Assembly: GCA_017633495.1 (NCBI GenBank)
Contig: JAGBPE010000235.1
Span: 1-38,277 of the forward strand
Reading direction: 5' to 3'
Length of the DNA: 38,277 bases
Source: Bacteroidales bacterium
Lineage (GTDB): Bacteria; Bacteroidota; Bacteroidia; Bacteroidales; WCHB1-69
Position numbers and translations under genes: made by a program. Positions 247 to 38,276 of the stretch are shown piece by piece. Within the stretch, counting starts at the first letter, position 1. Each line of letters starts with the position of its first letter. The notes under the pieces are model-generated. The model saw nothing but the letters and a program-made list of their open reading frames with translations. It had not been told where the DNA came from and ran no database searches.

Positions 247-298
247 CAATAACTAAAAAAAATGCCCCGTCGTCACGGGGCATTTTTTTTAGTTATTG
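247..298. terminator. Bidirectional rho-independent terminator
   Basis: Perfect 24-bp arms CAATAACT-A8-TGCCCCGT / loop CGTC / ACGGGGCA-T8-AGTTATTG between convergent genes. Confidence 0.92.
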
Positions 299-1711
299 TT
301 TCGGATTCTTCTTCCGCCAATTGTCGTAATGTCCCCAGTTGAAGACAATTCCCGCAGTGGCGGTCAACTGTGAAACGTTCTTCACCGAAAGCGCGGCGAT
401 GATGTTCTGCGTGCCGGCATAGATGTTCAAGTAACCGAGGTTAAAGCCCACCCCTATTCCGAGATTGTCGTAAGAATGGCGCTGCATGGTGTAGGCCACG
501 CAAACGTCAATCGAATTGAAGAACAATCCGTCGTAAGCCAACGTGAGTGAGGGCTGGAAGTAGTTCTTGGCAAAGCGGAACTGCGTGGCGGCACTCACGC
601 GGTGATGCTTGGCAAACTCATAATCAGCCTGCAATACCAATCTCGGAGTGAGTCCCGTCGTATAGCTCCCTGTAGGCGCAATGCCCATGGGAAAATACTG
701 CGCCAAGGTGTCCAATAGTTCTTCGTAACCCTCCCCGTTCATCAGGGCTTCAATCTGCGACTGAGACAGTCCACTGAAAGTGAAAGAGCCGTCTTGGTAC
801 ACACTGCCATCATCGTCCAAACTGCTGGTCATCCGCGTCGTGGAGGTGTTCCAGTTGATGAACCCAAAATCCAAAAGTCCAGCCGACAAGTTGAGCGACT
901 CCATCAATTTATAGGAAAAGCCCATATCCAAACCGAATCCGACATTCTTGAAGACATTCCCCGCAATCTTTTTGGCATCATTGTCTATTTCGAAATTGAA
1001 ACCATCCTGCTGGTTGAAAGTCATGGTGAAAGGTACAACGGCAGCAGCACGCATGAGCGCGGCGTATGTCATGGTGATGGTGTAATCCGTCGGGTCGGTG
1101 TACACCTGCGCGTTAAGGTACTGCGTATTGATGTTGGCCACTCCGAAGAGCAATTTCGGACGCACACCCCAGGAAATTTTGTCGTTGACTTGATGGCGGA
1201 AACTGACCCCCAACTCCTGATAAGCATTAAGGTTGATGCCCAATTTCAAATCGGCTGGCTCATCCACGTATGCCATATTGCCGTAAATGGGCAAACCAAG
1301 CACATCGCGAGAGTAGGTAAAGTCGAGATTGGTGCGCAACCTATGGTCAACCGTCAAGAAAAATTTGTCCTTAATACGAAAACCTATGCCAAAAATTTCC
1401 AAATCAGCATTAACCCCTAAATAGTTTTTGTCGGAAAGGCTGTTCACGAATGTCGTGGCGGTCAGCACCGTCGGGTAGCCCTCTTCATTGGTCGCAAAGA
1501 GGTTTTTGTATCGTATGGAACCCAAATTCACACCGACTTGGATATTGCCGGTGGGCAGGCTGACATAACCGTTATAAATGGTGGAACTAGACGGCAGATC
1601 GTTGTGCTGAAACGGTGAAATCCGCATGAAATGGGTCACATCCAACGCTTGTCCGCTCACTGAAAAACAAAAGCAGCCCCACATGAACAATGTGAAGATA
1701 ATCTTCCTCAT
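293..1711 (-). CDS. Outer-membrane beta-barrel protein, DUF5723-like
   Basis: 472 aa; N-terminal signal peptide; alternating amphipathic strands (GFGLDMGFSY, NLGIGVGFNLG, AGIVFNWG); resembles Bacteroidota DUF5723. Confidence 0.7.
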   Translation of the reverse strand: MRKIIFTLFMWGCFCFSVSGQALDVTHFMRISPFQHNDLPSSSTIYNGYVSLPTGNIQVGVNLGSIRYKNLFATNEEGYPTVLTATTFVNSLSDKNYLGVNADLEIFGIGFRIKDKFFLTVDHRLRTNLDFTYSRDVLGLPIYGNMAYVDEPADLKLGINLNAYQELGVSFRHQVNDKISWGVRPKLLFGVANINTQYLNAQVYTDPTDYTITMTYAALMRAAAVVPFTMTFNQQDGFNFEIDNDAKKIAGNVFKNVGFGLDMGFSYKLMESLNLSAGLLDFGFINWNTSTTRMTSSLDDDGSVYQDGSFTFSGLSQSQIEALMNGEGYEELLDTLAQYFPMGIAPTGSYTTGLTPRLVLQADYEFAKHHRVSAATQFRFAKNYFQPSLTLAYDGLFFNSIDVCVAYTMQRHSYDNLGIGVGFNLGYLNIYAGTQNIIAALSVKNVSQLTATAGIVFNWGHYDNWRKKNPKQ

Positions 1712-1722
1712 AACGATCTCTG

Positions 1723-3291
1723 TTAGTTATTCACCAAGCTATTCAAGTCCACGTTCATCCGCGCACCCAACTGAATACGAATCGCTTGCGCCACATTGAT
1801 GGAGATTGACGTTCCGTCAGTATAGAGTCGAGCCTCCAAGATGATATTGTCGCAAGAAAGCATCCTCTGCACCTCCTGATAGCTCTCTTTAGTGGCGTAA
1901 ACCTCGCTGAAACGGGGCGTTCCATTCAACGCACTCAACACCGTTTGCGGTTCCGTAAAGAGACTGTCTTTCACCGTACCCGTCTGTGAATCATAGAAAT
2001 AAGCCTGCAATTGGAAGTTCAGCGGTAGCCCGTTGGTAAGTCCCATACGCAGCAGCATATTGGAGAATGCTGATTCGTTCGGGAGTGAGAGACCGCCGAA
2101 AGGTATCGTATCGCGGAACGAGATATCGTCCATGTTCATCTCTAGCGGAAGCACCACGCAAAAACGCATACTGATCACCTGATCATCGCGCAACACCAAC
2201 GTCGGGGTGCTGAAACCGTCGGGATTGATGGTGGCATTTCCTTTCAGCTTGAAGTGGTCGAAATTGGGAGAAAGCATCAAAGAACTGGTTATCGGCAAGT
2301 TGACAGGGATAAACTGTTGCGTGCTACCAGGAATCTCCACCGTAGCGGGAGAATAGGCGAGCAGTGAGGAAGATGTGCCACCTCCTGAAAGCTGGGCCTG
2401 GTTCAGCACAACGTTCCCCCGTACAGGAAACGTGTTCAATATCTCGCAAGTTACCTGCGGATTCAGCAACGTCATGCTCCCGGAAATATGATCGCGCAAG
2501 AATTCGCTGTCGAAATCCCACTCTTTATCCACCGGAAGGTTCACAGCGACAAATTTGCCGCGGATTTCAGAGAATGAAACCTGGCTGAATGCAGCACGAT
2601 AGTTGAATGTCAGCTGGTTTGGCAAAGATCCTATGTTCGCATCACAAGAAACTTCCATGAAAAAGTCTATCTTATTGTCAGACAGAACGGTAAGGGAATA
2701 ACCACTGAGATCCAACGTCGTGGTGTAGGATCCACCGCTGGACTGCGCCTGCACATGGAATGGCTGGCCGGAAGCACTGGTCAATTGCGGACATGTGACA
2801 TCGATCATTGTCGGCTGCGTCAGGTTATAAGTGACCTGCAGCTGAATCTGACCCGACTTCAGCGAAGCACTCTCCAGCAACACCATGTCGGTGGGGAACT
2901 GCGTGGTCAAAGTGTCTTTATACAACACCTGAACATTCCCTTGAACAGGAGGCAAATCGCCTAAGGAGAGGGTTTTGGTTCCCTCCACAGATATATCGTT
3001 GTCTATATACGAATCCAAATACTCTGACGCGGAAATCACCGAATCGAAGGTATACTCGTAACGGATTTCAAGCGTTCCATCGCTTCCTTGCTGAAGATAG
3101 CCGACATTGTCGCTCATCTCCAATATGTCACCAATGGTGTATTCGGCGTTGAGCAACGGAAAACCCCAATCGCCGTTCGCGTCAATCTCATCAAGTTGAG
3201 AAAAATTGAAAGCATTGTGGTTACAACCGATGAAAGAAAACGACATCAGCAGGAGTGCAACCCCAAGAAAAGTGTGTAATATTTGTCGCAT
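1723..3291 (-). CDS. Hypothetical lipoprotein, beta-rich
   Basis: Lipobox-like FIGC after a hydrophobic stretch; start moved to ATG 3291 because a TATTTTTG promoter box overlaps the track's TTG start. Confidence 0.7.
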   Translation of the reverse strand: MRQILHTFLGVALLLMSFSFIGCNHNAFNFSQLDEIDANGDWGFPLLNAEYTIGDILEMSDNVGYLQQGSDGTLEIRYEYTFDSVISASEYLDSYIDNDISVEGTKTLSLGDLPPVQGNVQVLYKDTLTTQFPTDMVLLESASLKSGQIQLQVTYNLTQPTMIDVTCPQLTSASGQPFHVQAQSSGGSYTTTLDLSGYSLTVLSDNKIDFFMEVSCDANIGSLPNQLTFNYRAAFSQVSFSEIRGKFVAVNLPVDKEWDFDSEFLRDHISGSMTLLNPQVTCEILNTFPVRGNVVLNQAQLSGGGTSSSLLAYSPATVEIPGSTQQFIPVNLPITSSLMLSPNFDHFKLKGNATINPDGFSTPTLVLRDDQVISMRFCVVLPLEMNMDDISFRDTIPFGGLSLPNESAFSNMLLRMGLTNGLPLNFQLQAYFYDSQTGTVKDSLFTEPQTVLSALNGTPRFSEVYATKESYQEVQRMLSCDNIILEARLYTDGTSISINVAQAIRIQLGARMNVDLNSLVNN

Positions 3292-3315
3292 AAGCCATAG
3301 AATTTTTAACTGCGA

Positions 3316-3323
3316 CAAAAATA
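3316..3323 (-). promoter_or_regulatory. Bacteroidota housekeeping promoter -7 box
   Basis: TATTTTTG (TAnnTTTG) on minus strand, about 25 nt upstream of ATG 3291. Confidence 0.65.
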
Positions 3324-3367
3324 CAAAAAATAAATTACATCATCAACAACTAAAACAGTGCAAAAAA

Positions 3368-4177
3368 TTATGTCCTGATAATCCTCACCCTTCCAGTTGC
3401 CTGGTTCTCTATTCCATTGTAGAAGAATGTGAACTCATAATAATAGATGCCTTCGGGACAGTCGCGGCCACCCCAAGTGTTCTGATAATTATTACTTTGA
3501 TAGACCACTCGACCATTCTTGTCGCGAACAATCAGCTTCGGAGACGTATACTGATCCAACCCTTCAATTACGAACAAATCGTTGACACCATCGCCATTTG
3601 GAGTAAACAGATTGGGGATTCTCAACTGCGTCGGCTTCGACCAGTCCACACTACCGTCGGAAAGATTCTTCAAGACAGGATCTTCAGCCAGCTGTTTAGC
3701 CAACGTGGAGTTGGCGGGTAGCACCTCCTGTTTGACATTCTGTTTCACAGGGGCCTTCTCGGTTTTATTTGAGACCTCCTGAGCGGGAACTTCCTCAGGT
3801 GCAGGGTTCTCCACAACAGGCTTCACCTCTTTCACCACAGGCAATTCCTCGGCAGGCGCCTCTTCAACAACTACCTTAGGTTCAACCACTTCCGATTCAA
3901 TCACCTCCTCTATCTTATCCATAGACTCCAACACGGCCAAGTCGTTGGGTTTGGAACTGCGATCAGGATGATACGCAAGCGTTCCAAGGGTTACACCTCC
4001 CAACACCAACAAACCTGAAACAACACCGATCACGGTTTTCTTCGCCACCGAAAGATTCGACCAAGACGAGGATTTACCCGTCGGCATCTCCACGTCCAAA
4101 CGCCCGCTCAACCTCTCCCATACATCCTCAGAGGGGCTCTTACTGTGTTCCTTCAACAAATCTTTAATTGTATTCAT
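3368..4177 (-). CDS. Anti-sigma-like membrane protein with T9SS type B (gliding motility-associated, CHU_C) C-terminal domain
   Basis: N-terminal PSEDVWERL, single TM helix (VIGVVSGLLVLGGVTLGTLAY), E/V/P/K-rich linker, C-terminal IPNLFTPNGDGVNDLF...PEGIYYY...GRVRIIR; lies directly downstream of an ECF sigma gene. Confidence 0.75.
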   Translation of the reverse strand: MNTIKDLLKEHSKSPSEDVWERLSGRLDVEMPTGKSSSWSNLSVAKKTVIGVVSGLLVLGGVTLGTLAYHPDRSSKPNDLAVLESMDKIEEVIESEVVEPKVVVEEAPAEELPVVKEVKPVVENPAPEEVPAQEVSNKTEKAPVKQNVKQEVLPANSTLAKQLAEDPVLKNLSDGSVDWSKPTQLRIPNLFTPNGDGVNDLFVIEGLDQYTSPKLIVRDKNGRVVYQSNNYQNTWGGRDCPEGIYYYEFTFFYNGIENQATGRVRIIRT

Positions 4178-4207
4178 TTGACTTTTACAATTGCAAAATA
4201 TAAAAAA

Positions 4208-4759
4208 CTAGTCTTTTTCCAATTTTAATCTTTCCATCAACCACTTCCTTCCCCGCATATACGAATTGCGGACAGCATTCTCCTTTTTGTCCAGCATTTG
4301 CGCAATTTCGGTGAAAGAGTATTCATCTACAGCCTTGAGGTTGAAAACCACCCGCATCGCTTCAGGCATTTGTTGGATCAGCTGCAACAGCTGATCCGCC
4401 ACAAGATTCGTTCTGATCTGTTCTTCCTCGTCAACATTCTCCAACAATTCCATATTCTCAGTGAGAATCTCCATGCGAAAACGACTGGAGTTGCGAAAAT
4501 GACTGATGGCAAAATTGAGCATCACTGATGTCACCCAAGTGCCAAAAGCACTTTTGTGTTGATAGGAGCCCAAATTTTTAAAGATCTGCATAAACCCCTC
4601 CATCAGCAAATCCTCCGCCTCTTCATCCGAACTGCTATAACGCCTACAAAGCCCGAACAGCTCCGACGAATACCTGTCATACAGCTGCCGTTGGCTCAAC
4701 CGGTCGTTTTTCAAACATCCAGCGATAATCTTTTCGATGTCAGAATCTATCTCCTTCAC
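4208..4759 (-). CDS. ECF-family RNA polymerase sigma factor
   Basis: 183 aa; region 2 (QRQLYDRY, EAEDLLMEGF, FGTWVTSVMLN) and region 4 (RVVFNLKAVDEYSFTEIAQML); GTG start. Confidence 0.93.
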   Translation of the reverse strand: MKEIDSDIEKIIAGCLKNDRLSQRQLYDRYSSELFGLCRRYSSSDEEAEDLLMEGFMQIFKNLGSYQHKSAFGTWVTSVMLNFAISHFRNSSRFRMEILTENMELLENVDEEEQIRTNLVADQLLQLIQQMPEAMRVVFNLKAVDEYSFTEIAQMLDKKENAVRNSYMRGRKWLMERLKLEKD

Positions 4760-4766
4760 ATTATAT

Positions 4767-4795
4767 TAGACGCGTGAAGTGTCGATTTTATCACA
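4767..4795 (-). promoter_or_regulatory. Putative ECF-sigma (autoregulatory) promoter
   Basis: TGTGAT-N17-CGTCTA on minus strand, ending 7 nt before the sigma GTG start. Confidence 0.5.
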
Positions 4796-4809
4796 TTTAA
4801 AATGAAAAA

Positions 4810-5790
4810 TTATTGTATCGACTTCACAACTGCCTCAACCTCACGCAGATAGTCTCTCTTTTTTTCTTGCGGAGCATACACAAATCCGTCCACAGTAATA
4901 CAGGAAAGGCTGTCGGGGGAGATTTGGGTGAAACTGTAGAAAGGTCCCCCCATCTTGTCGCGCACAGATGCCCACAATCCCCTCAATTCCAGACCTTCAT
5001 GGTAACGAATCTGCAGTTTTTCCGCCAACGGATAACCCTCCAAATCGGCCACAATGGGGTAAGCACCGGCAACAGCCCCTTGGATGTAGGCTTTGGTGAT
5101 GCGGTCGCGCTCGGCCACCACATTCTCTTTTGTAAGTTCATAACGAGGTGATTTGTAAATCATTACAAATCTGTCATTCTTTGGAGTACGGAAACAAAGC
5201 CACAGGAAATCTTCCTCTTCACGACCGACAAAATAGCCGTCCGGCACTGTCATCTTAATGCCGAATTTTTCATAAATTTTCTTCTCCAACACCGCGTTGT
5301 TCAACTTCCGATGGGCATTTTGCAAACGGGCAATGTCGTTTTCGTACATGGCTTTCACAATCTCGTCTTGATGGGCGAGAAAGAGTGCCAGACAGGAATC
5401 CTGATGATTGCCCTTGATGACAATCAATACCTGAGGATTGGCAATCGGATTTTTGACAATCTCGAATGTATTCGCCGAATAATCAGGACTATAGTCAAAT
5501 TGAACGATGTTGCGATGCCGCATGAACGAAGCCTTGTAATCGGCATTGGAACATTGGATGATGTCGAACATCGGCTCGATTTGGTTGATGGCAGGTTGAG
5601 GCTGTTGCAGCACAGCATAAATCGCCTTCTTTGCCGAAGTGCTCCAGTAGCTCGTATCGATAGCCAGGATCATCTCACCTGCCTTGCCTGTCGAAAAATT
5701 GTCCACCTTGATGGATGGGGTTGAATTATGATGGCAGGAGACCATCGTCACAAGCAGCAATACCGCTGCGAGGTAGCTGATTTTTTTCAT
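4810..5790 (-). CDS. DUF4837-like lipoprotein
   Basis: MKKISYLAAVLLLVTMVSC lipobox; motifs STGKAGE, Q.EPMF, ELRGLW, MGGPF, DGFVYAP..KKRDY recall DUF4837. Confidence 0.8.
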   Translation of the reverse strand: MKKISYLAAVLLLVTMVSCHHNSTPSIKVDNFSTGKAGEMILAIDTSYWSTSAKKAIYAVLQQPQPAINQIEPMFDIIQCSNADYKASFMRHRNIVQFDYSPDYSANTFEIVKNPIANPQVLIVIKGNHQDSCLALFLAHQDEIVKAMYENDIARLQNAHRKLNNAVLEKKIYEKFGIKMTVPDGYFVGREEEDFLWLCFRTPKNDRFVMIYKSPRYELTKENVVAERDRITKAYIQGAVAGAYPIVADLEGYPLAEKLQIRYHEGLELRGLWASVRDKMGGPFYSFTQISPDSLSCITVDGFVYAPQEKKRDYLREVEAVVKSIQ

Positions 5791-11969: not shown

Positions 11970-12872
11970 ATGAAACGCATTTTCGGACTTATCATCGTCA
12001 TGCTGATCTCCTTTGGCTCACTGAAGGCTCAAGACTTCCAATGCGCCATCTCCATTAACGCCACCCAAATCTCAAACACGGGCAATCAGCAGCGATACAA
12101 CGAGTTAAGACAGAAACTGTACTCCTTTATCCACGAACGGAAATGGTGTCAGTATAACCTGAAACAGAATGAACGCATCGAATGTTCCATCACCATCAAC
12201 TTGACCAAAGCCTCTGGTGACGAATATGAAGGTACCGCCACCATAGTTTTGCAACGCCCTGTCTACAAGGCCAGTTACAAGACTACGTTGATGAGTTTTC
12301 AGGACAAGAAGGTGAAATTCAAATATGCAGACGGCGACCCGCTGGAGTATGACGAAAACTCCAATCTTTCGGAAATCACCTCTCTGATTGCCTATTACCT
12401 GAATCTTTTCATTGCCGTTGAGCTGGACTCCTTCTCCCCAAACGGCGGTTCTCCCTATTTCAGCAAGTGCCAAAACATTGTAAACCAAAACCTTAGAGAT
12501 GTCGGTTGGAGTGTGGCGGAAAGCGGACAAAACAACCGTTATTGGATTACGGAGAATTTCACCAACGGCACCTACAGCAAGATTCACGATTTCTACTATC
12601 AATACCACCGTCTGGGTCTGGATGTGATGTACGAGACCCCGGATGCCGGCCGCGCTGTCATTCTGGAAAGTCTCAAACTGCTGCAGCAAGTCAACGCCCA
12701 AAAATCCAATCTGGCCGTTGTCCGCATCATTTTGAATACAAAAAAGGACGAAATCATCAATATCTTCAAGGAAGGAATGCCGTCTGAGAAGACGCAGGTA
12801 ATCAACATCATGAAGCAAATCGACCCGACCAACGCTTCTGCGTATGATGCCATCAACACCGCATCTAAATAA
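11970..12872 (+). CDS. DUF4835 family protein (T9SS-associated PorD-like)
   Basis: Signal peptide; ERIECS, RPVY, DSFSPNGG, NRYW, YHRLGLD motifs; position between coaBC and recN. Confidence 0.8.
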   Translation: MKRIFGLIIVMLISFGSLKAQDFQCAISINATQISNTGNQQRYNELRQKLYSFIHERKWCQYNLKQNERIECSITINLTKASGDEYEGTATIVLQRPVYKASYKTTLMSFQDKKVKFKYADGDPLEYDENSNLSEITSLIAYYLNLFIAVELDSFSPNGGSPYFSKCQNIVNQNLRDVGWSVAESGQNNRYWITENFTNGTYSKIHDFYYQYHRLGLDVMYETPDAGRAVILESLKLLQQVNAQKSNLAVVRIILNTKKDEIINIFKEGMPSEKTQVINIMKQIDPTNASAYDAINTASK

Positions 12873-19053: not shown

Positions 19054-21978
19054 TTATCTAACCAAAGTCACCGTACCCGTGTACTCCTTGTCTTCCGCAT
19101 TCAGGTTTACAAGACGGATCAGGTAGATGTACACACCTTCGGGACACATTTGTCCGTATTTGTTGCGGCCGTCCCAATAATCGTAAGGATTCAGGGTGGA
19201 GAAAATCAACATGCCGGAGCGGTCGAAAATCTGCATCTGGTAATTGTCGGGATCCACGCCCTGACCTTTCGGAGCAAAAGTCTCGTTAACACCATCGCCA
19301 TCAGGCGTGAATGCATTGGGGATGTAAAAGAAGTAGGGCACTTCTACCGAAACGCGAGCCTTTATGGAATCCACACAACCGAACGTATCCGTAGCTGTCA
19401 GTGAGATAGTGTAATATCCAGAATGGGTATAATCATGTGTCACTTCCTCCACATTTTCCAAAATATTGACATTGGAGAAAATATCCCCGAAGTTCCAAAC
19501 CAAGTGATAATCACCGGAAGAGAGGCTCGTACAGGTCACTGTACCGACACCGTTTTCCACGTATATTTCAGTAGGTGAAGCCACGAAGGAGGGCACCGGC
19601 AGCGGCAATACTGTCACTGTGATATCATCCGTAACTTGACAGTTACCGATCATGGTGGCGGTCACCGTATAGGTGGTGGTCACCTGCGGGGAAACCGTGA
19701 TGGAGGAGGTATTTTGGCCACTGCTCCAATGGAACTCGTTGGATGAAGAGTGGGAAGCCGTCAGTGTGGTGGACTTGCCCAAACAGATGGTGTCGACACC
19801 CGAAATGACAGGCAGTTCCAGTTCCGTAACCAGCACTGTCACAGAGTCGCACTTGGTACAACCGTTGTCAAAGGTAACCGTCACTAAATAGGTGGTCGTC
19901 TCAGACGGGGAAACGACAGGAGTGGCAACCGTGTCACCGGAGCTCCAAGAGTAGCGCTCGGGGTGAATTTGCGGGTAATTCTGGAAATTCACACCCAAAG
20001 AAGCATTGTCATTCGGACAGATATAGTTGGTTCCTGTGCTGGTAGTGGCATCCACATCGGGAATCTCCACCTTGATGGTAACGGTGTCACGAAGAGTGAA
20101 CGGATCGCCAATGGAATTCGTGTACTTATATTCGGCGATATATTTGGTCGTTTCCGAAGGGCTCACCATAATTCTTGTATTCTTCGCGTGTGCATCATAA
20201 CTGATGATGTTTGCAGGAGAGACAGAATTGGCATACCACGTCAGCTCTGCATTTTCATCCAACGGAGTAATCGGGGTGAAACGCCAAGCCTCCTCGTCAG
20301 CCGTCCAACCAGTCATACCTCTGCCATTGGGAATCAAAATTTGGGAAGAGGTGTTGTTTTGCAAACCAATAATACCCTCATGGCGACTACTATTTGTGGA
20401 GGCACAACATGCTCTATGCTTCACATACACATCGATGATGTTCGTGCCTTCATAAATCACCATTTGGTAGGTATTGTAGTTGCTGGAACTGCTATGGTTG
20501 CCAAACAGACCGACATTCAAGTAGTTGAACACAAATGCGCGACACGGAGAGCTTCCAAGCACACCCACTCTGACCGCACCAGGAGTGTTGTAGCAATAAG
20601 AATTGTAATAATTACAGTCAATATCCTCATACACACCATAAATGCAATTTTTATAGTTGTACGGCACTGTCATACTTCCGCCGCCCATGGTCTGATTACC
20701 AGAAATACTCGTGGTATAGGGAGGTGAGGCGGGAGGATCACCGTATGCGTATGCACAAGAACCTGAGTGGTTATCCATGGCAATCAGGCCGTTAGTACCT
20801 GGCCACACGGTCGTGTACTGTTTTCCGAAGAAGATGAATGTAAACGGTAATTGGACCGCACTGAGCCAGTTATCATCGGAACTTGCATTAATACTGTTAC
20901 CCTGATTGAATTCGAAAATATGGGATTCAAACGGAATGGATTTCACCGTATAGTCGTTGGTGTATTGTCCCGTGGCGATAATTTCCGCCGAAAGCAGCAC
21001 AACCGGATTATTGCAATCAAAGTCAATTACATGCGGGTTTGGCACATCTGCGTAAGAACCACTTGGGACAATGGTGATACTCGGGCAGGCGCTACCGTCA
21101 GGACTATCGAAAAGTTCTGTAACACAAGAGATTTCGGCACGCCAACCTGCCTTGCTCACATCACCGGCAGCACCTACATAGACAAATGAGAGGGCATTGG
21201 TGCTGGAAAACAGCACCGGAGGCTTGTTACCCGTGGACGCGTCCAATGTGGAGGTACAGAACTGACCAATCAGACGCTTGTTGTTGTCGTAATAGAGACC
21301 GTCATACACCTTCAGCACACCATTGACAGCGAACTGGGTGAAGACACATTTGATATGCGATCCCGTAGGAGATGTAAACTGTGCAAATTGCGTTTCACCT
21401 TGGTTCTCGTTGTTGGAAGCGATATTGCCGTTCGGGCCGCCTGAATCATAGAAATAGGCGTTACAGGTGATATTGAAGACATCCTGTCCGAAAAGTCGGT
21501 TGCCTGGCAATGTGTCGAAGGCATAGACTTGCGCTACCCAACCACTCATTAAGCCCGGAATGTCCACATTATCAGAATGGAAGACAAAGGTCATGTTCTT
21601 TCCGGAAGCATAAAGTTCTCCGGGAGAGTTCACCAAATTGAATGCCCCAATCAGCGGTGCCGTGCAGGAGGGACCATCGTAAATCCACAATGTGTCGCCC
21701 TCTGACATCTCGAATTCTTCGAAATTGATATAGAGCACAGAATTGGTCATACTGATACGCAATGTCATCGTGTCACGCAAATTCTGAGCAAAATTGCCAT
21801 CCGGATCCTGATTTTCTCCCATTTCCGTCGGTGTGCCACCTGGGTCATAGAAAAAACGGGGCGAATCGTCAATATCACTCACCAAGGGTGCAGACCCCAT
21901 TATAATCGACTGGCTAATAGCAACTTGTGTAATCAACAACAATGATAACAACAAGGGTAAACGCAAAATTTTCTTCAT
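19054..21978 (-). CDS. Large T9SS type B substrate with CUB-like, Ig-like/PKD domains and gliding motility-associated CTD
   Basis: Signal peptide; two FYDxGG...YDG CUB-like units; ICLGKSTTLTA/VSPQVTTTYTVT repeats; WNFGD PKD; YIPNAFTPDGDGVNETF...GTVTLVR. Confidence 0.85.
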   Translation of the reverse strand: MKKILRLPLLLSLLLITQVAISQSIIMGSAPLVSDIDDSPRFFYDPGGTPTEMGENQDPDGNFAQNLRDTMTLRISMTNSVLYINFEEFEMSEGDTLWIYDGPSCTAPLIGAFNLVNSPGELYASGKNMTFVFHSDNVDIPGLMSGWVAQVYAFDTLPGNRLFGQDVFNITCNAYFYDSGGPNGNIASNNENQGETQFAQFTSPTGSHIKCVFTQFAVNGVLKVYDGLYYDNNKRLIGQFCTSTLDASTGNKPPVLFSSTNALSFVYVGAAGDVSKAGWRAEISCVTELFDSPDGSACPSITIVPSGSYADVPNPHVIDFDCNNPVVLLSAEIIATGQYTNDYTVKSIPFESHIFEFNQGNSINASSDDNWLSAVQLPFTFIFFGKQYTTVWPGTNGLIAMDNHSGSCAYAYGDPPASPPYTTSISGNQTMGGGSMTVPYNYKNCIYGVYEDIDCNYYNSYCYNTPGAVRVGVLGSSPCRAFVFNYLNVGLFGNHSSSSNYNTYQMVIYEGTNIIDVYVKHRACCASTNSSRHEGIIGLQNNTSSQILIPNGRGMTGWTADEEAWRFTPITPLDENAELTWYANSVSPANIISYDAHAKNTRIMVSPSETTKYIAEYKYTNSIGDPFTLRDTVTIKVEIPDVDATTSTGTNYICPNDNASLGVNFQNYPQIHPERYSWSSGDTVATPVVSPSETTTYLVTVTFDNGCTKCDSVTVLVTELELPVISGVDTICLGKSTTLTASHSSSNEFHWSSGQNTSSITVSPQVTTTYTVTATMIGNCQVTDDITVTVLPLPVPSFVASPTEIYVENGVGTVTCTSLSSGDYHLVWNFGDIFSNVNILENVEEVTHDYTHSGYYTISLTATDTFGCVDSIKARVSVEVPYFFYIPNAFTPDGDGVNETFAPKGQGVDPDNYQMQIFDRSGMLIFSTLNPYDYWDGRNKYGQMCPEGVYIYLIRLVNLNAEDKEYTGTVTLVR

Positions 21979-37643: not shown

Positions 37644-38276
37644 TTATTTGCGGATCACCGGCCTCGTGCCGACGATGCCCTGTTCGGTGAAAATCTTAGC
37701 GAAATAGGTGCCCGTGGCGAGTGTGCTGACAGGAATCTCCATTACAGCGCTGTTCACGTCTACAACTTTCACCAACTGACCGTAAGCATTGTACAATTCA
37801 ACCTTCTCAAAGTTAATGCTCTTGCTTTCGAAATGAATAAAGACTCGGTCGGAAGCCGGATTCGGATAGACCATAAGAGGATCGTCCATATCAATAGTGG
37901 GCAAACCAGTGGGATCATAGTCATAAACCGCAATCTCACTGTTGACCATACCCTCCTTCATGGCGATGGCCTTGATAATGTAGTGGACATTCAAATAGAA
38001 TGGAACTGCGTCGGTGTACGCATAGCTGTTCTCATCGGGATCAGAACCATCAATGGTGTAATACATGGAAGCACCTTCCGTGGCGCAAGTGAGCGTCATA
38101 CGGTAAAACTCGCCGTCGCGTTGGAAGAAGAACTCCGGTGTGGCAACTGTTTCTAACGTAGAGATAATAATGTCGTTGTTGTCACGAGGATAAACCTGAT
38201 AGCCATACTGGGTGGAATAGCTGACAAAACCGATGACATCGGCGTGATCACCAGCGGAAATCTCCACATCAACCGT
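37644..38276 (-). CDS. T9SS type A substrate, 3' part (chitobiase/Fn3-associated domain plus Por secretion tail)
   Basis: YQVYPRDNNDI; VATPEF...YYTIDGSDP; VYPNPASD...LYNAYGQLV...GTYFAKI; frame open to the window edge. Confidence 0.85.
   Translation of the reverse strand, partial: TVDVEISAGDHADVIGFVSYSTQYGYQVYPRDNNDIIISTLETVATPEFFFQRDGEFYRMTLTCATEGASMYYTIDGSDPDENSYAYTDAVPFYLNVHYIIKAIAMKEGMVNSEIAVYDYDPTGLPTIDMDDPLMVYPNPASDRVFIHFESKSINFEKVELYNAYGQLVKVVDVNSAVMEIPVSTLATGTYFAKIFTEQGIVGTRPVIRK

Follow-up and report, generated by a model that had tools for sequence, protein, structure and literature searches.

In this study, we analysed a 38,277-nt stretch of contig JAGBPE010000235.1 (positions 1 to 38,277) from the assembly GCA_017633495.1 of a rumen Bacteroidales bacterium, here called the window, to whose positions all coordinates refer unless stated otherwise. 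Its minus strand encodes an extracytoplasmic function (ECF) sigma factor and, directly after it, a protein of 269 amino acids (aa), and both open reading frames (ORFs) are as an earlier note on this DNA had described them. The 269-aa protein is a Dma-like anti-sigma factor in which a type IX secretion system (T9SS) C-terminal domain (CTD) takes the place of the outer-membrane barrel. With a confidence a little above even, we favour the reading that this anti-sigma factor would dock on the T9SS via its CTD and couple the transcription of cargo genes to the secretion system. Architecture, conservation, synteny, promoter sites and the cargo content of the predicted regulon were obtained by computation, while sigma binding and the fold of the CTD come from structure models.

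That the 269-aa ORF encodes the anti-sigma factor of the adjacent ECF sigma factor had been claimed before, and this assignment is supported in silico by synteny and by a complex model with controls. For the modelling, which the earlier note had proposed, the sigma factor was combined with residues 1-46 of the 269-aa protein. The resulting ipSAE values were 0.77, 0.77 and 0.76, compared with 0.00 for the best of three controls; the mark used for this score is reached by 58 of 80 solved complexes and by 2 of 110 mismatched pairs, a calibration which is approximate here as custom alignments were supplied. The complex runs had at least 87% of the contacts in common, and the predicted local distance difference test (pLDDT) value of the partner was at least 72. 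In the model, residues 1-34 of the anti-sigma factor lie between region 2 (residues 17-61) and region 4 (residues 114-146 and 174) of the sigma factor, and the contacts with the lowest error are formed by residues invariant on both sides (P15, W20 and L27 of the anti-sigma factor; Q23, Y27 and F56 of the sigma factor). Classical anti-sigma domains (zf-HC2/RsiW, RskA, FecR, FlgM) were searched with Pfam in the 269-aa protein, and none was found at E ≤ 0.1.

A profile built from the N-terminal 70 residues and searched against 1.84 billion representatives yielded 268 proteins at E ≤ 1e-3. Scanning of 148 of these matches revealed 28 proteins with CHU_C, 10 with OMP_b-brl_2 and 6 with OMP_b-brl. 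The barrel-bearing matches have 478-580 aa, with the module at residues ~12-76, the barrel at the C-terminus and a profile E-value of ~1e-5. Members of the Dma family of Bacteroides thetaiotaomicron are described as starting with an N-terminal sigma-binding region and one transmembrane (TM) helix and as ending, after a long disordered stretch, in a barrel of the outer membrane, with an ECF21 sigma factor encoded adjacently (PMC10927553). Because the N-terminal profile reaches barrel proteins of just this architecture, the 269-aa protein is classified as Dma-like. Judged from these matches, the N-terminal module seems to be a widespread anti-sigma head of Bacteroidota with exchangeable periplasmic ends. 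The Dma-like, barrel-bearing module proteins include P0193, P0202, P0230, P0237 and P0241, and many other matches to the module, ranging from 100 to 750 aa, carry no Pfam domain.

The sigma factor itself was matched by Pfam in Sigma70_r2 (51.6 bits) and Sigma70_r4_2 (50.9 bits), while region 3 of sigma-70 gave no Pfam match in the protein. Having regions 2 and 4 only at a length of ~180 aa, it belongs to the ECF (group 4) sigma factors. TIGR02937 scored 94.1 bits (cut-off 42.9), and the named NCBIfam equivalogs stayed below their cut-offs, the best scores being those of sigma_PG0214 (83 vs. 130) and Sig70_bacteroi1 (74 vs. 126). All features are listed in Table 1.

Table 1. Features of the sigma/anti-sigma locus and of T9SS-related genes in the window
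Feature	Position	Strand	Basis or remark
ECF sigma factor gene, 183 aa, GTG start	4208..4759	(-)	Pfam and NCBIfam matches
269-aa anti-sigma ORF	3368..4177	(-)	30-nt gap after sigma gene
Predicted cytoplasmic sigma-binding module, residues 1-34 (helices 4-8 and 17-30; motif PSxxVWxRLxxRLDxEMP)	4076..4177	(-)	Conservation, complex model, profile
Single TM helix, residues ~47-68, N-in/C-out	3974..4039	(-)	Hydropathy, positive-inside count
Disordered acidic tether, residues 69-146; variable sequence, constant length	3740..3973	(-)	Homologue alignment, pLDDT ~30
Conserved pre-CTD segment, residues 147-185	3623..3739	(-)	Near-invariant columns in 24 sequences
Type B T9SS CTD, residues 186-269	3371..3622	(-)	PF13585, TIGR04131, beta-sandwich model
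ECF-type promoter of sigma operon: -35 TGTGATAAAAT (4785-4795), 10-nt spacer, -10 CGCGTCTAA (4766-4774)	4766..4795	(-)	Conserved block
PorD equivalog	11970-12872		306 bits vs. cut-off 170
Type B cargo, 974-aa CUB/PKD protein with type B CTD	19054-21978
Type A cargo fragment, chitobiase-like protein with type A CTD	37644-38267

The alignment of homologues revealed four conserved blocks, namely the N-terminal motif, the TM helix, the segment ahead of the CTD and the CTD itself, which is very well conserved. The first 32 residues are conserved at the protein level, and P15, W20, R26, L27, E30, M31 and P32 are invariant in 24 sequences. In 118 homologues, the 15 residues before the hydrophobic stretch contain 3.7 lysine and arginine residues, compared with 1.5 after it. 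Because a conserved N-terminus precedes the helix and the excess of lysine and arginine lies ahead of it, the hydrophobic stretch is predicted to be retained as a signal anchor with N-in/C-out orientation rather than cleaved off as a signal peptide. The earlier description of a short soluble N-terminus followed by one TM helix, with no cleavable signal peptide, holds.

Alternatively, the protein could be no regulator at all but an ordinary small T9SS cargo, translated from an internal methionine start and with the hydrophobic stretch as cleaved signal peptide. M31 is indeed invariant and located ahead of this stretch, and the databases call the homologues, where they name them, 'gliding motility-associated C-terminal domain-containing protein'. 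However, residues 1-30, which such a start would leave out of use, are conserved at the protein level with P15, W20, R26 and L27 invariant, and the complex model engages exactly these N-terminal residues. The strict linkage to a sigma gene described below also argues against ordinary cargo: for none of 20 ordinary short CHU_C proteins of other Bacteroidota, chosen among the top matches, was a sigma gene present in the fetched stretch, three of these stretches being cut by contig ends. Instead of the cleavable Sec signal peptide and passenger domain of T9SS cargo, a conserved, predicted cytoplasmic N-terminus of ~46 residues was found ahead of the only hydrophobic stretch, and no passenger domain. 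We consider this explanation very improbable.

Between the end of the TM helix and the P.NSTLA motif, 118 of 120 homologues have 81-101 residues (median 85) with a median net charge of -8, and E, V, T, A, Q and P are the most frequent residues of this tether. The linker is thus shorter than the ~110 residues given in the earlier note, and its composition differs from the E/V/P/K-rich one stated there. The same note had regarded the CTD as the only outer domain; the CTD was confirmed, and it is preceded by a further conserved segment of ~35 residues (NVRQEVLPxNSTLAKQLAxDPVLKNLSD at residues 147-173), for which the structure models give short helices at low confidence. Apart from CHU_C/TIGR04131, no second Pfam or NCBIfam family was found on the protein at E ≤ 0.1. 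An AlphaFold2 model of the full-length protein, which had a mean pLDDT of 51 and, at this low confidence, was used for secondary structure only, consists of helices at residues 4-8 and 17-30, a TM helix at 45-67, disorder at 68-157, two short helices and a beta-sandwich.

The CTD was identified by the search with hidden Markov models that the earlier note had proposed. PF13585 (CHU_C) scored 68 bits (cut-off 27) at residues 186-261 of 269 and TIGR04131 scored 41.5 bits (cut-off 35) at residues 186-254, so that both models exceed their curated cut-offs at the extreme C-terminus. When modelled alone from 45 aligned CTDs, the domain forms a soluble beta-sandwich with pLDDT values of 93-97. All 10 columns that are invariant among the 45 aligned type B CTDs are retained in it, and it is 45-54% identical to canonical CTDs of Sphingobacteriia cargo. 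The CTD shows 61-81% identity, compared with 39-79% for the sigma factor, and its conservation matches that of housekeeping neighbours. A Foldseek search of the CTD model against the PDB gave nothing at E ≤ 1e-3 and only generic immunoglobulin-like sandwiches at E ≥ 3.4e-3; these weak matches include the T9SS CTDs of PorZ and NucA (5m11, 8glk_D), and no solved type B CTD was recognised among them. Type B CTDs are described as binding to PorP/SprF-like barrels (PMC9143113; PMC12618676).

A word-indexed protein search with the 269-aa protein yielded 221 proteins at E ≤ 1e-3, the best 120 of which all have 247-299 aa and carry PF13585. In species-representative genomes, 20 loci with a full-length or near full-length relative were detected, all from uncultured Bacteroidales of rumen or gut. 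The sigma gene is located directly upstream in all 19 of these loci that have upstream DNA, with a DUF4837 gene in turn ahead of it. The remaining 60 loci retained in the genome scan are CTD-only matches and, where the reading frame was fully resolved, represent ordinary, mostly large cargo ORFs. On metagenome contigs, 8 full-length loci have upstream DNA, and all 8 carry the sigma gene directly upstream; 4 of them are from the same group and 4 are diverged (~30% identity). The survey of synteny between sigma gene and TM-linker-CTD gene that had been proposed earlier therefore showed linkage in every genome and metagenome locus in which it could be read. At the aligned start position of the sigma gene, GTG is present in 19 of 19 related loci, some of which have another candidate start beside it.

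The linkage is not confined to one pair. The genome to which the window belongs contains 12 ORFs with a type B CTD, two of which are short, TM-anchored and linked to a sigma gene. The second pair is located on contig C241 (L082:507-1971) and consists of a 185-aa sigma factor and a 309-aa protein, the two genes overlapping by 20 nt. The 309-aa protein has a TM helix, a linker rich in T, P and Q and a type B CTD; it is divergent from the first, and 5 of 5 relatives keep it together with its sigma gene. The proteins of a third group, ~300 aa long and more diverged, have their layout in common with the first and show 25-46% identity within the group. In the GTDB family of the window, 40 of 81 sampled genomes gave a match to the 269-aa protein at E ≤ 1e-25, in 38 cases within frames of ≤ 391 aa. 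In a sample of the order with about one genome per family, 2 of 151 genomes matched at this threshold, both in the genus of the window. PF13585 occurs in 245 of 301 sampled genomes of the phylum.

Several other ECF sigma genes of the window genome are followed by genes for short single-pass proteins. On contig C137 (L099:2275-2793), the gene after that of the closest sigma paralogue encodes a 173-aa protein whose N-terminal motif is similar and which has a TM helix but no CTD. The resemblance of the N-termini of the C137 and C241 paralogues (PSAWRRF and EEGWASI, respectively) to that of the anti-sigma factor was judged by eye, and the N-terminal profile found only the query at a significant E-value when searched against the window's own genome.

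The promoter of the operon lies within the 50-nt gap between the stop codon of the DUF4837 gene and the sigma start, where the alignment shows it as a conserved block free of gaps in 18 of 18 loci. Its sequence is TGTAACAAAA-N11-GTGCGAC across the loci and TGTGATAAAAT-N10-CGCGTCTAA in the clade of the window, with the consensus TGT[G/A]A[T/C]AAAAT-N10-[C/G][G/T]GCG[T/A]C. Thus, the predicted promoter directly 5′ of the sigma gene has the form of an autoregulated ECF promoter (AAC-type -35, CGT/CGA-type -10). A generic scan for sigma-70 promoters and terminators from 3100 to 5000 gave a site count not above that of shuffled sequences. Because the -10 element ends 6 nt ahead of the GTG, little or no leader seems to precede the sigma gene (4757-4774), and the block following the -10 element (TAATAyAATGTG) is also kept at three other copies of the promoter, upstream of unrelated genes.

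Searching the window genome for the promoter with at most 1 mismatch in 20 positions detected 4 sites, which are the one of the operon itself and three more, each with 1 mismatch, while a reversed pattern used as control gave no site at ≤ 2 mismatches in this genome. The first of the three further targets is a Fn3/MAM protein of >1702 aa, which is cut off by a contig edge after the first part of a type A CTD. The second site precedes the gene of a secreted protein of 150 aa, behind which a P_proprotein/PKD protein of ≥ 722 aa is encoded, and the third target is a DUF6624 protein. In five relatives, 43 sites were found at ≤ 1 mismatch, 28 of them exact, compared with 0 for the reversed pattern. 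The following counts cover 30 of these 43 sites. All 30 have a gene start 4-193 nt downstream, which in 5 cases is that of the sigma gene itself. The remaining 25 targets all begin with signal-peptide-like N-termini, as judged by eye from the printed N-termini with no predictor applied. A T9SS CTD is present at the C-terminus of 9 of these 25 proteins (4 CHU_C, type B; 5 Por_Secre_tail, type A; 8 recognised by Pfam and 1 by its identical tail), and another 3 are truncated proteins from families that bear such a CTD (IgGFc_binding, giant Fn3). Orthologues of all three targets of the window genome recur in the relatives. By these motif matches, the predicted regulon is enriched for T9SS cargo, which supports in silico the earlier claim that the sigma/anti-sigma pair is tied to the T9SS.

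Some members of the regulon deserve separate mention. In L105, L128, L129 and L130 (462-492 aa), a Fib_succ_major domain at the C-terminus occurs together with a Por_Secre_tail-like domain that is internal (residues ~88-173) and scores 21.9-31.7 bits at a cut-off of 27. For the 150-aa family, only unnamed Bacteroidota clusters were found in Protein Atlas. The second sigma/anti-sigma pair has its own promoter, TGTAA-N14-TTTCGTC. On contig C100 (~5207-5306; L097), the motifs of both sigma types are arranged in tandem upstream of a giant Fn3/MAM cargo gene, with that of the second pair 74 nt downstream of the site of the first; the motif of the second type has only 4 matches in the window genome, 2 of which are chance-like.

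Four bovine-gut RNA libraries contain 62-65% of the words of the operon, and RNA-library contigs from three studies span the sigma/anti-sigma junction, which proves neither a single transcript nor a transcription start. One such contig ends exactly at 4759, the GTG start, and two runs have no RNA cover over 4763-4843, which is a weak hint only. In the RNA runs X16 and X18, loose contig ends at 4799 match the promoter variant that a related species carries (as the reverse complement of TGTAACGAAATCCGGGTTTCGTGCGAC). Because these contig ends carry that variant, relatives with the same operon are, as far as can be read from them, present in both samples.

The T9SS that the earlier note had considered plausible for this organism is represented in the window genome by SprA, GldM/PorM, three PorP/SprF-family genes and PorD, and SprA was also found in 5 of 5 relatives. 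The PorD-like protein and the substrates with type A and type B CTDs, which had been reported for the window, were all located (Table 1). In the GTDB family, SprA was detected in 77 of 81 genomes, comprising 37 of 40 carriers and 40 of 41 non-carriers of the anti-sigma factor. The three carriers with no SprA match are 73%, 86% and 94% complete. The co-occurrence with the T9SS that the earlier note had suggested as a check was thus observed, but it does not discriminate, as carriers and non-carriers are alike in this respect.

For the mechanism, we infer docking of the CTD, the sign of the response and any proteolysis. In the reading that we favour, residues 1-34 would act in the cytoplasm, clamping the sigma factor between regions 2 and 4, a single helix would cross the inner membrane, and the acidic disordered tether of ~85 residues would cross the periplasm. 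The CTD, a near-consensus type B sorting domain, would dock on an outer-membrane component of the T9SS, presumably a PorP/SprF-type shuttle or the SprA translocon, so that the docked anti-sigma factor would bridge the two membranes, a position that Dma1 holds by a covalent link. How much sigma factor is released would be set by occupancy, pulling or cleavage at the CTD end. The freed sigma factor would use the conserved promoter at its own operon and at a few further genes, whose products are secreted and in many cases T9SS cargo, and transcription of cargo would thereby be tied to the state or capacity of the secretion system. The response could have either of two signs, gating by a working machine in the manner of FlgM or feedback through competition between cargo and the tethered CTD.

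A more specific form of this mechanism, which we regard as unlikely, is a checkpoint with a tethered pseudo-substrate. Here, a working and unoccupied T9SS would capture the CTD on its 85-residue tether, the pull of the proton-motive motor would make the anti-sigma factor accessible to regulated intramembrane proteolysis, and the sigma factor would be freed, and cargo genes transcribed, only when export capacity is available. If true, the T9SS would have in it a mechanical counterpart of FlgM that is tethered to the membrane, and the paralogous pairs would gate different sets of cargo.

The CTD might also serve as an anchor only. In that case, its docking in a PorP/SprF-like barrel would fix the anti-sigma factor to the outer membrane, and the signal would be something other than secretion activity, such as envelope spacing or damage, vesiculation or growth phase. 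The N-terminal module in common with barrel-bearing Dma-like proteins fits this explanation, as does the constant tether length of 81-101 residues, and Dma1 is reported to control vesiculation and to be cleaved by growth phase (PMC10927553). Moreover, no promoter site was found before the T9SS machinery genes located in the window genome (SprA, GldM/PorM, PorP family), and no Pfam match on the scanned targets of the relatives names a T9SS component. Yet the enrichment of T9SS cargo among the targets (9 of 25 plus the 3 truncated ones) is not expected of a general envelope sensor, and a CTD as conserved as housekeeping neighbours (61-81%, compared with 39-79% for the sigma factor) points to a specific partner. 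An anchor without a role in sensing secretion therefore appears improbable to us, though it deserves consideration.

Several observations weigh against docking on the T9SS as the basis of the regulation. The T9SS is predicted to work without the anti-sigma factor, because SprA is present in 77 of 81 family genomes and the anti-sigma factor in 40 of 81, which leaves about half of the T9SS-positive genomes of the family without it. No PorP/SprF-like gene lies beside either of the two sigma/anti-sigma pairs, and no ORF with a type B CTD was found on the three contigs that carry PorP-family genes. The regulon is based on motif matches only; 13 of the 25 targets have no C-terminal CTD that could be found (Fib_succ_major, DUF6624, the 150-aa family and two others), and together with the 3 truncated proteins, 16 of 25 have no demonstrated status as cargo. 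All carriers are uncultured, metagenome-assembled genomes. By our own estimate, a tether of 85 residues would only just be long enough to reach through the outer membrane. Finally, where type B CTDs canonically have an NRWG stretch, the anti-sigma factor has RDKNGR, whereby the tryptophan is lost, and an invariant cysteine was gained, so the CTD may have drifted from secretion competence.

These two changes in the CTD would also fit a co-opted beta-sandwich that, as a ligand- or protein-binding domain, binds another inner-membrane or periplasmic partner or a glycan and acts as a periplasmic sensor with no contact to the T9SS. The generic immunoglobulin-like sandwiches at E ≥ 3.4e-3 as the only yield of Foldseek agree with such a sensor, and the CTD of PorA is reported to signal by binding to periplasmic PorY, also when an inner-membrane tether holds it (PMC12152298). 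On the other hand, the CTD scores above the curated type B cut-offs, keeps all residues invariant in 45 type B CTDs and is 45-54% identical to cargo CTDs of Sphingobacteriia. Furthermore, a partner in the inner membrane would not need a long tether of constant length. We regard a purely periplasmic sensor as quite unlikely and retain docking on the T9SS as the favoured reading.

Directly 3′ of the anti-sigma gene, on the minus strand at 293-3318, genes for a 531-aa putative lipoprotein with no family match and for a 472-aa DUF5723 protein are located. Because this pair has the same placement in only 4 of 19 related loci (L001, L011, L014, L018), it is probably not part of the sigma/anti-sigma system.

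How the synthesis of the often very large T9SS cargo proteins is matched to the capacity of the machine is largely unexplained in Bacteroidota outside the PorXY-SigP system of Porphyromonas. The locus offers a compact and testable candidate, with a sigma factor, an anti-sigma factor that has a secretion signal as its sole folded periplasmic domain, a defined promoter and few predicted targets. The promoter motif could be used for predicting co-regulated cargo sets in rumen Bacteroidales. The database name of the family members, which refers to gliding motility, hides their regulatory nature. We found no description of an anti-sigma factor with a CHU_C/type B CTD in the literature, the supplementary files of the cited papers being outside this scope.

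Compared with the parallel to FlgM drawn in the earlier note, Dma and the CTD of PorA are closer precedents. As in Dma, the gene of the 269-aa protein is located directly after an ECF sigma gene, and the product has a short cytoplasmic N-terminus predicted in silico to bind sigma, one TM helix and then a long disordered periplasmic linker; in addition, the N-terminal modules are detectably homologous. The two differ in their outer ends, as Dma ends in an 8-stranded OMP_b-brl_2 barrel and the 269-aa protein in a soluble type B CTD of 84 residues; Pfam found CHU_C as its sole domain, with no OMP_b-brl_2 match, and the model is a soluble sandwich. The linker of the 269-aa protein is also much shorter, and its attachment to the outer membrane would be non-covalent, through a T9SS component. 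Dma1 is described as a regulator of vesiculation (PMC10927553), whereas the regulon predicted here comprises secreted proteins and T9SS cargo. The Dma design would thereby be extended, since its outer-membrane end appears to be exchangeable between a barrel and a CTD for which a barrel would serve as docking site in trans.

In Porphyromonas gingivalis, the CTD of PorA is reported to signal to PorY-PorX-SigP in the periplasm and to be active even when tethered to the inner membrane (PMC12152298). PorA has a signal peptide, a FimH-like domain and a type A CTD and is described as restricted to Porphyromonas (PMC7712824). In both circuits, a CTD would provide the regulatory signal, and an ECF sigma factor linked to the T9SS would be its end point. 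However, PorA is a free, signal-peptide-bearing type A CTD protein acting via a two-component system, and SigP has no anti-sigma factor, whereas in the 269-aa protein the CTD is of type B and fused to the anti-sigma factor itself, with no signal peptide and no further domain. The regulon of PorA is the T9SS machinery, while the one predicted here is cargo.

The likeness to the other systems is more limited. FlgM, the checkpoint of flagellar sigma-28, is soluble and fully exported by the type III system. It resembles the 269-aa protein in logic only, in that an anti-sigma factor would be a substrate or mimic of a secretion machine and late genes would follow the state of this machine; there is no relation in sequence or fold, and export of the 269-aa protein is topologically impossible without cleavage. 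Anti-sigma factors of the FecR type are located in the inner membrane, contact an outer-membrane protein with their periplasmic end and are proteolytically processed, the partner being a TonB-dependent transducer. An inner-membrane anti-sigma factor with its periplasmic end toward an outer-membrane protein is also proposed here; yet the 269-aa protein has no FecR or FecR_C match in Pfam, and the partner of FecR is not a secretion system. With ordinary type B cargo such as SprB and PG1035, for which PorP/SprF proteins are the shuttles, it has the family of the C-terminal domain in common, but cargo has a cleaved Sec signal peptide, a passenger and often an adjacent shuttle gene, none of which is found for the 269-aa protein. 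Taken together, the 269-aa protein would extend the Dma-type group of ECF anti-sigma factors, with a regulatory logic close to that of PorA-PorXY-SigP and related to that of FlgM by analogy only.

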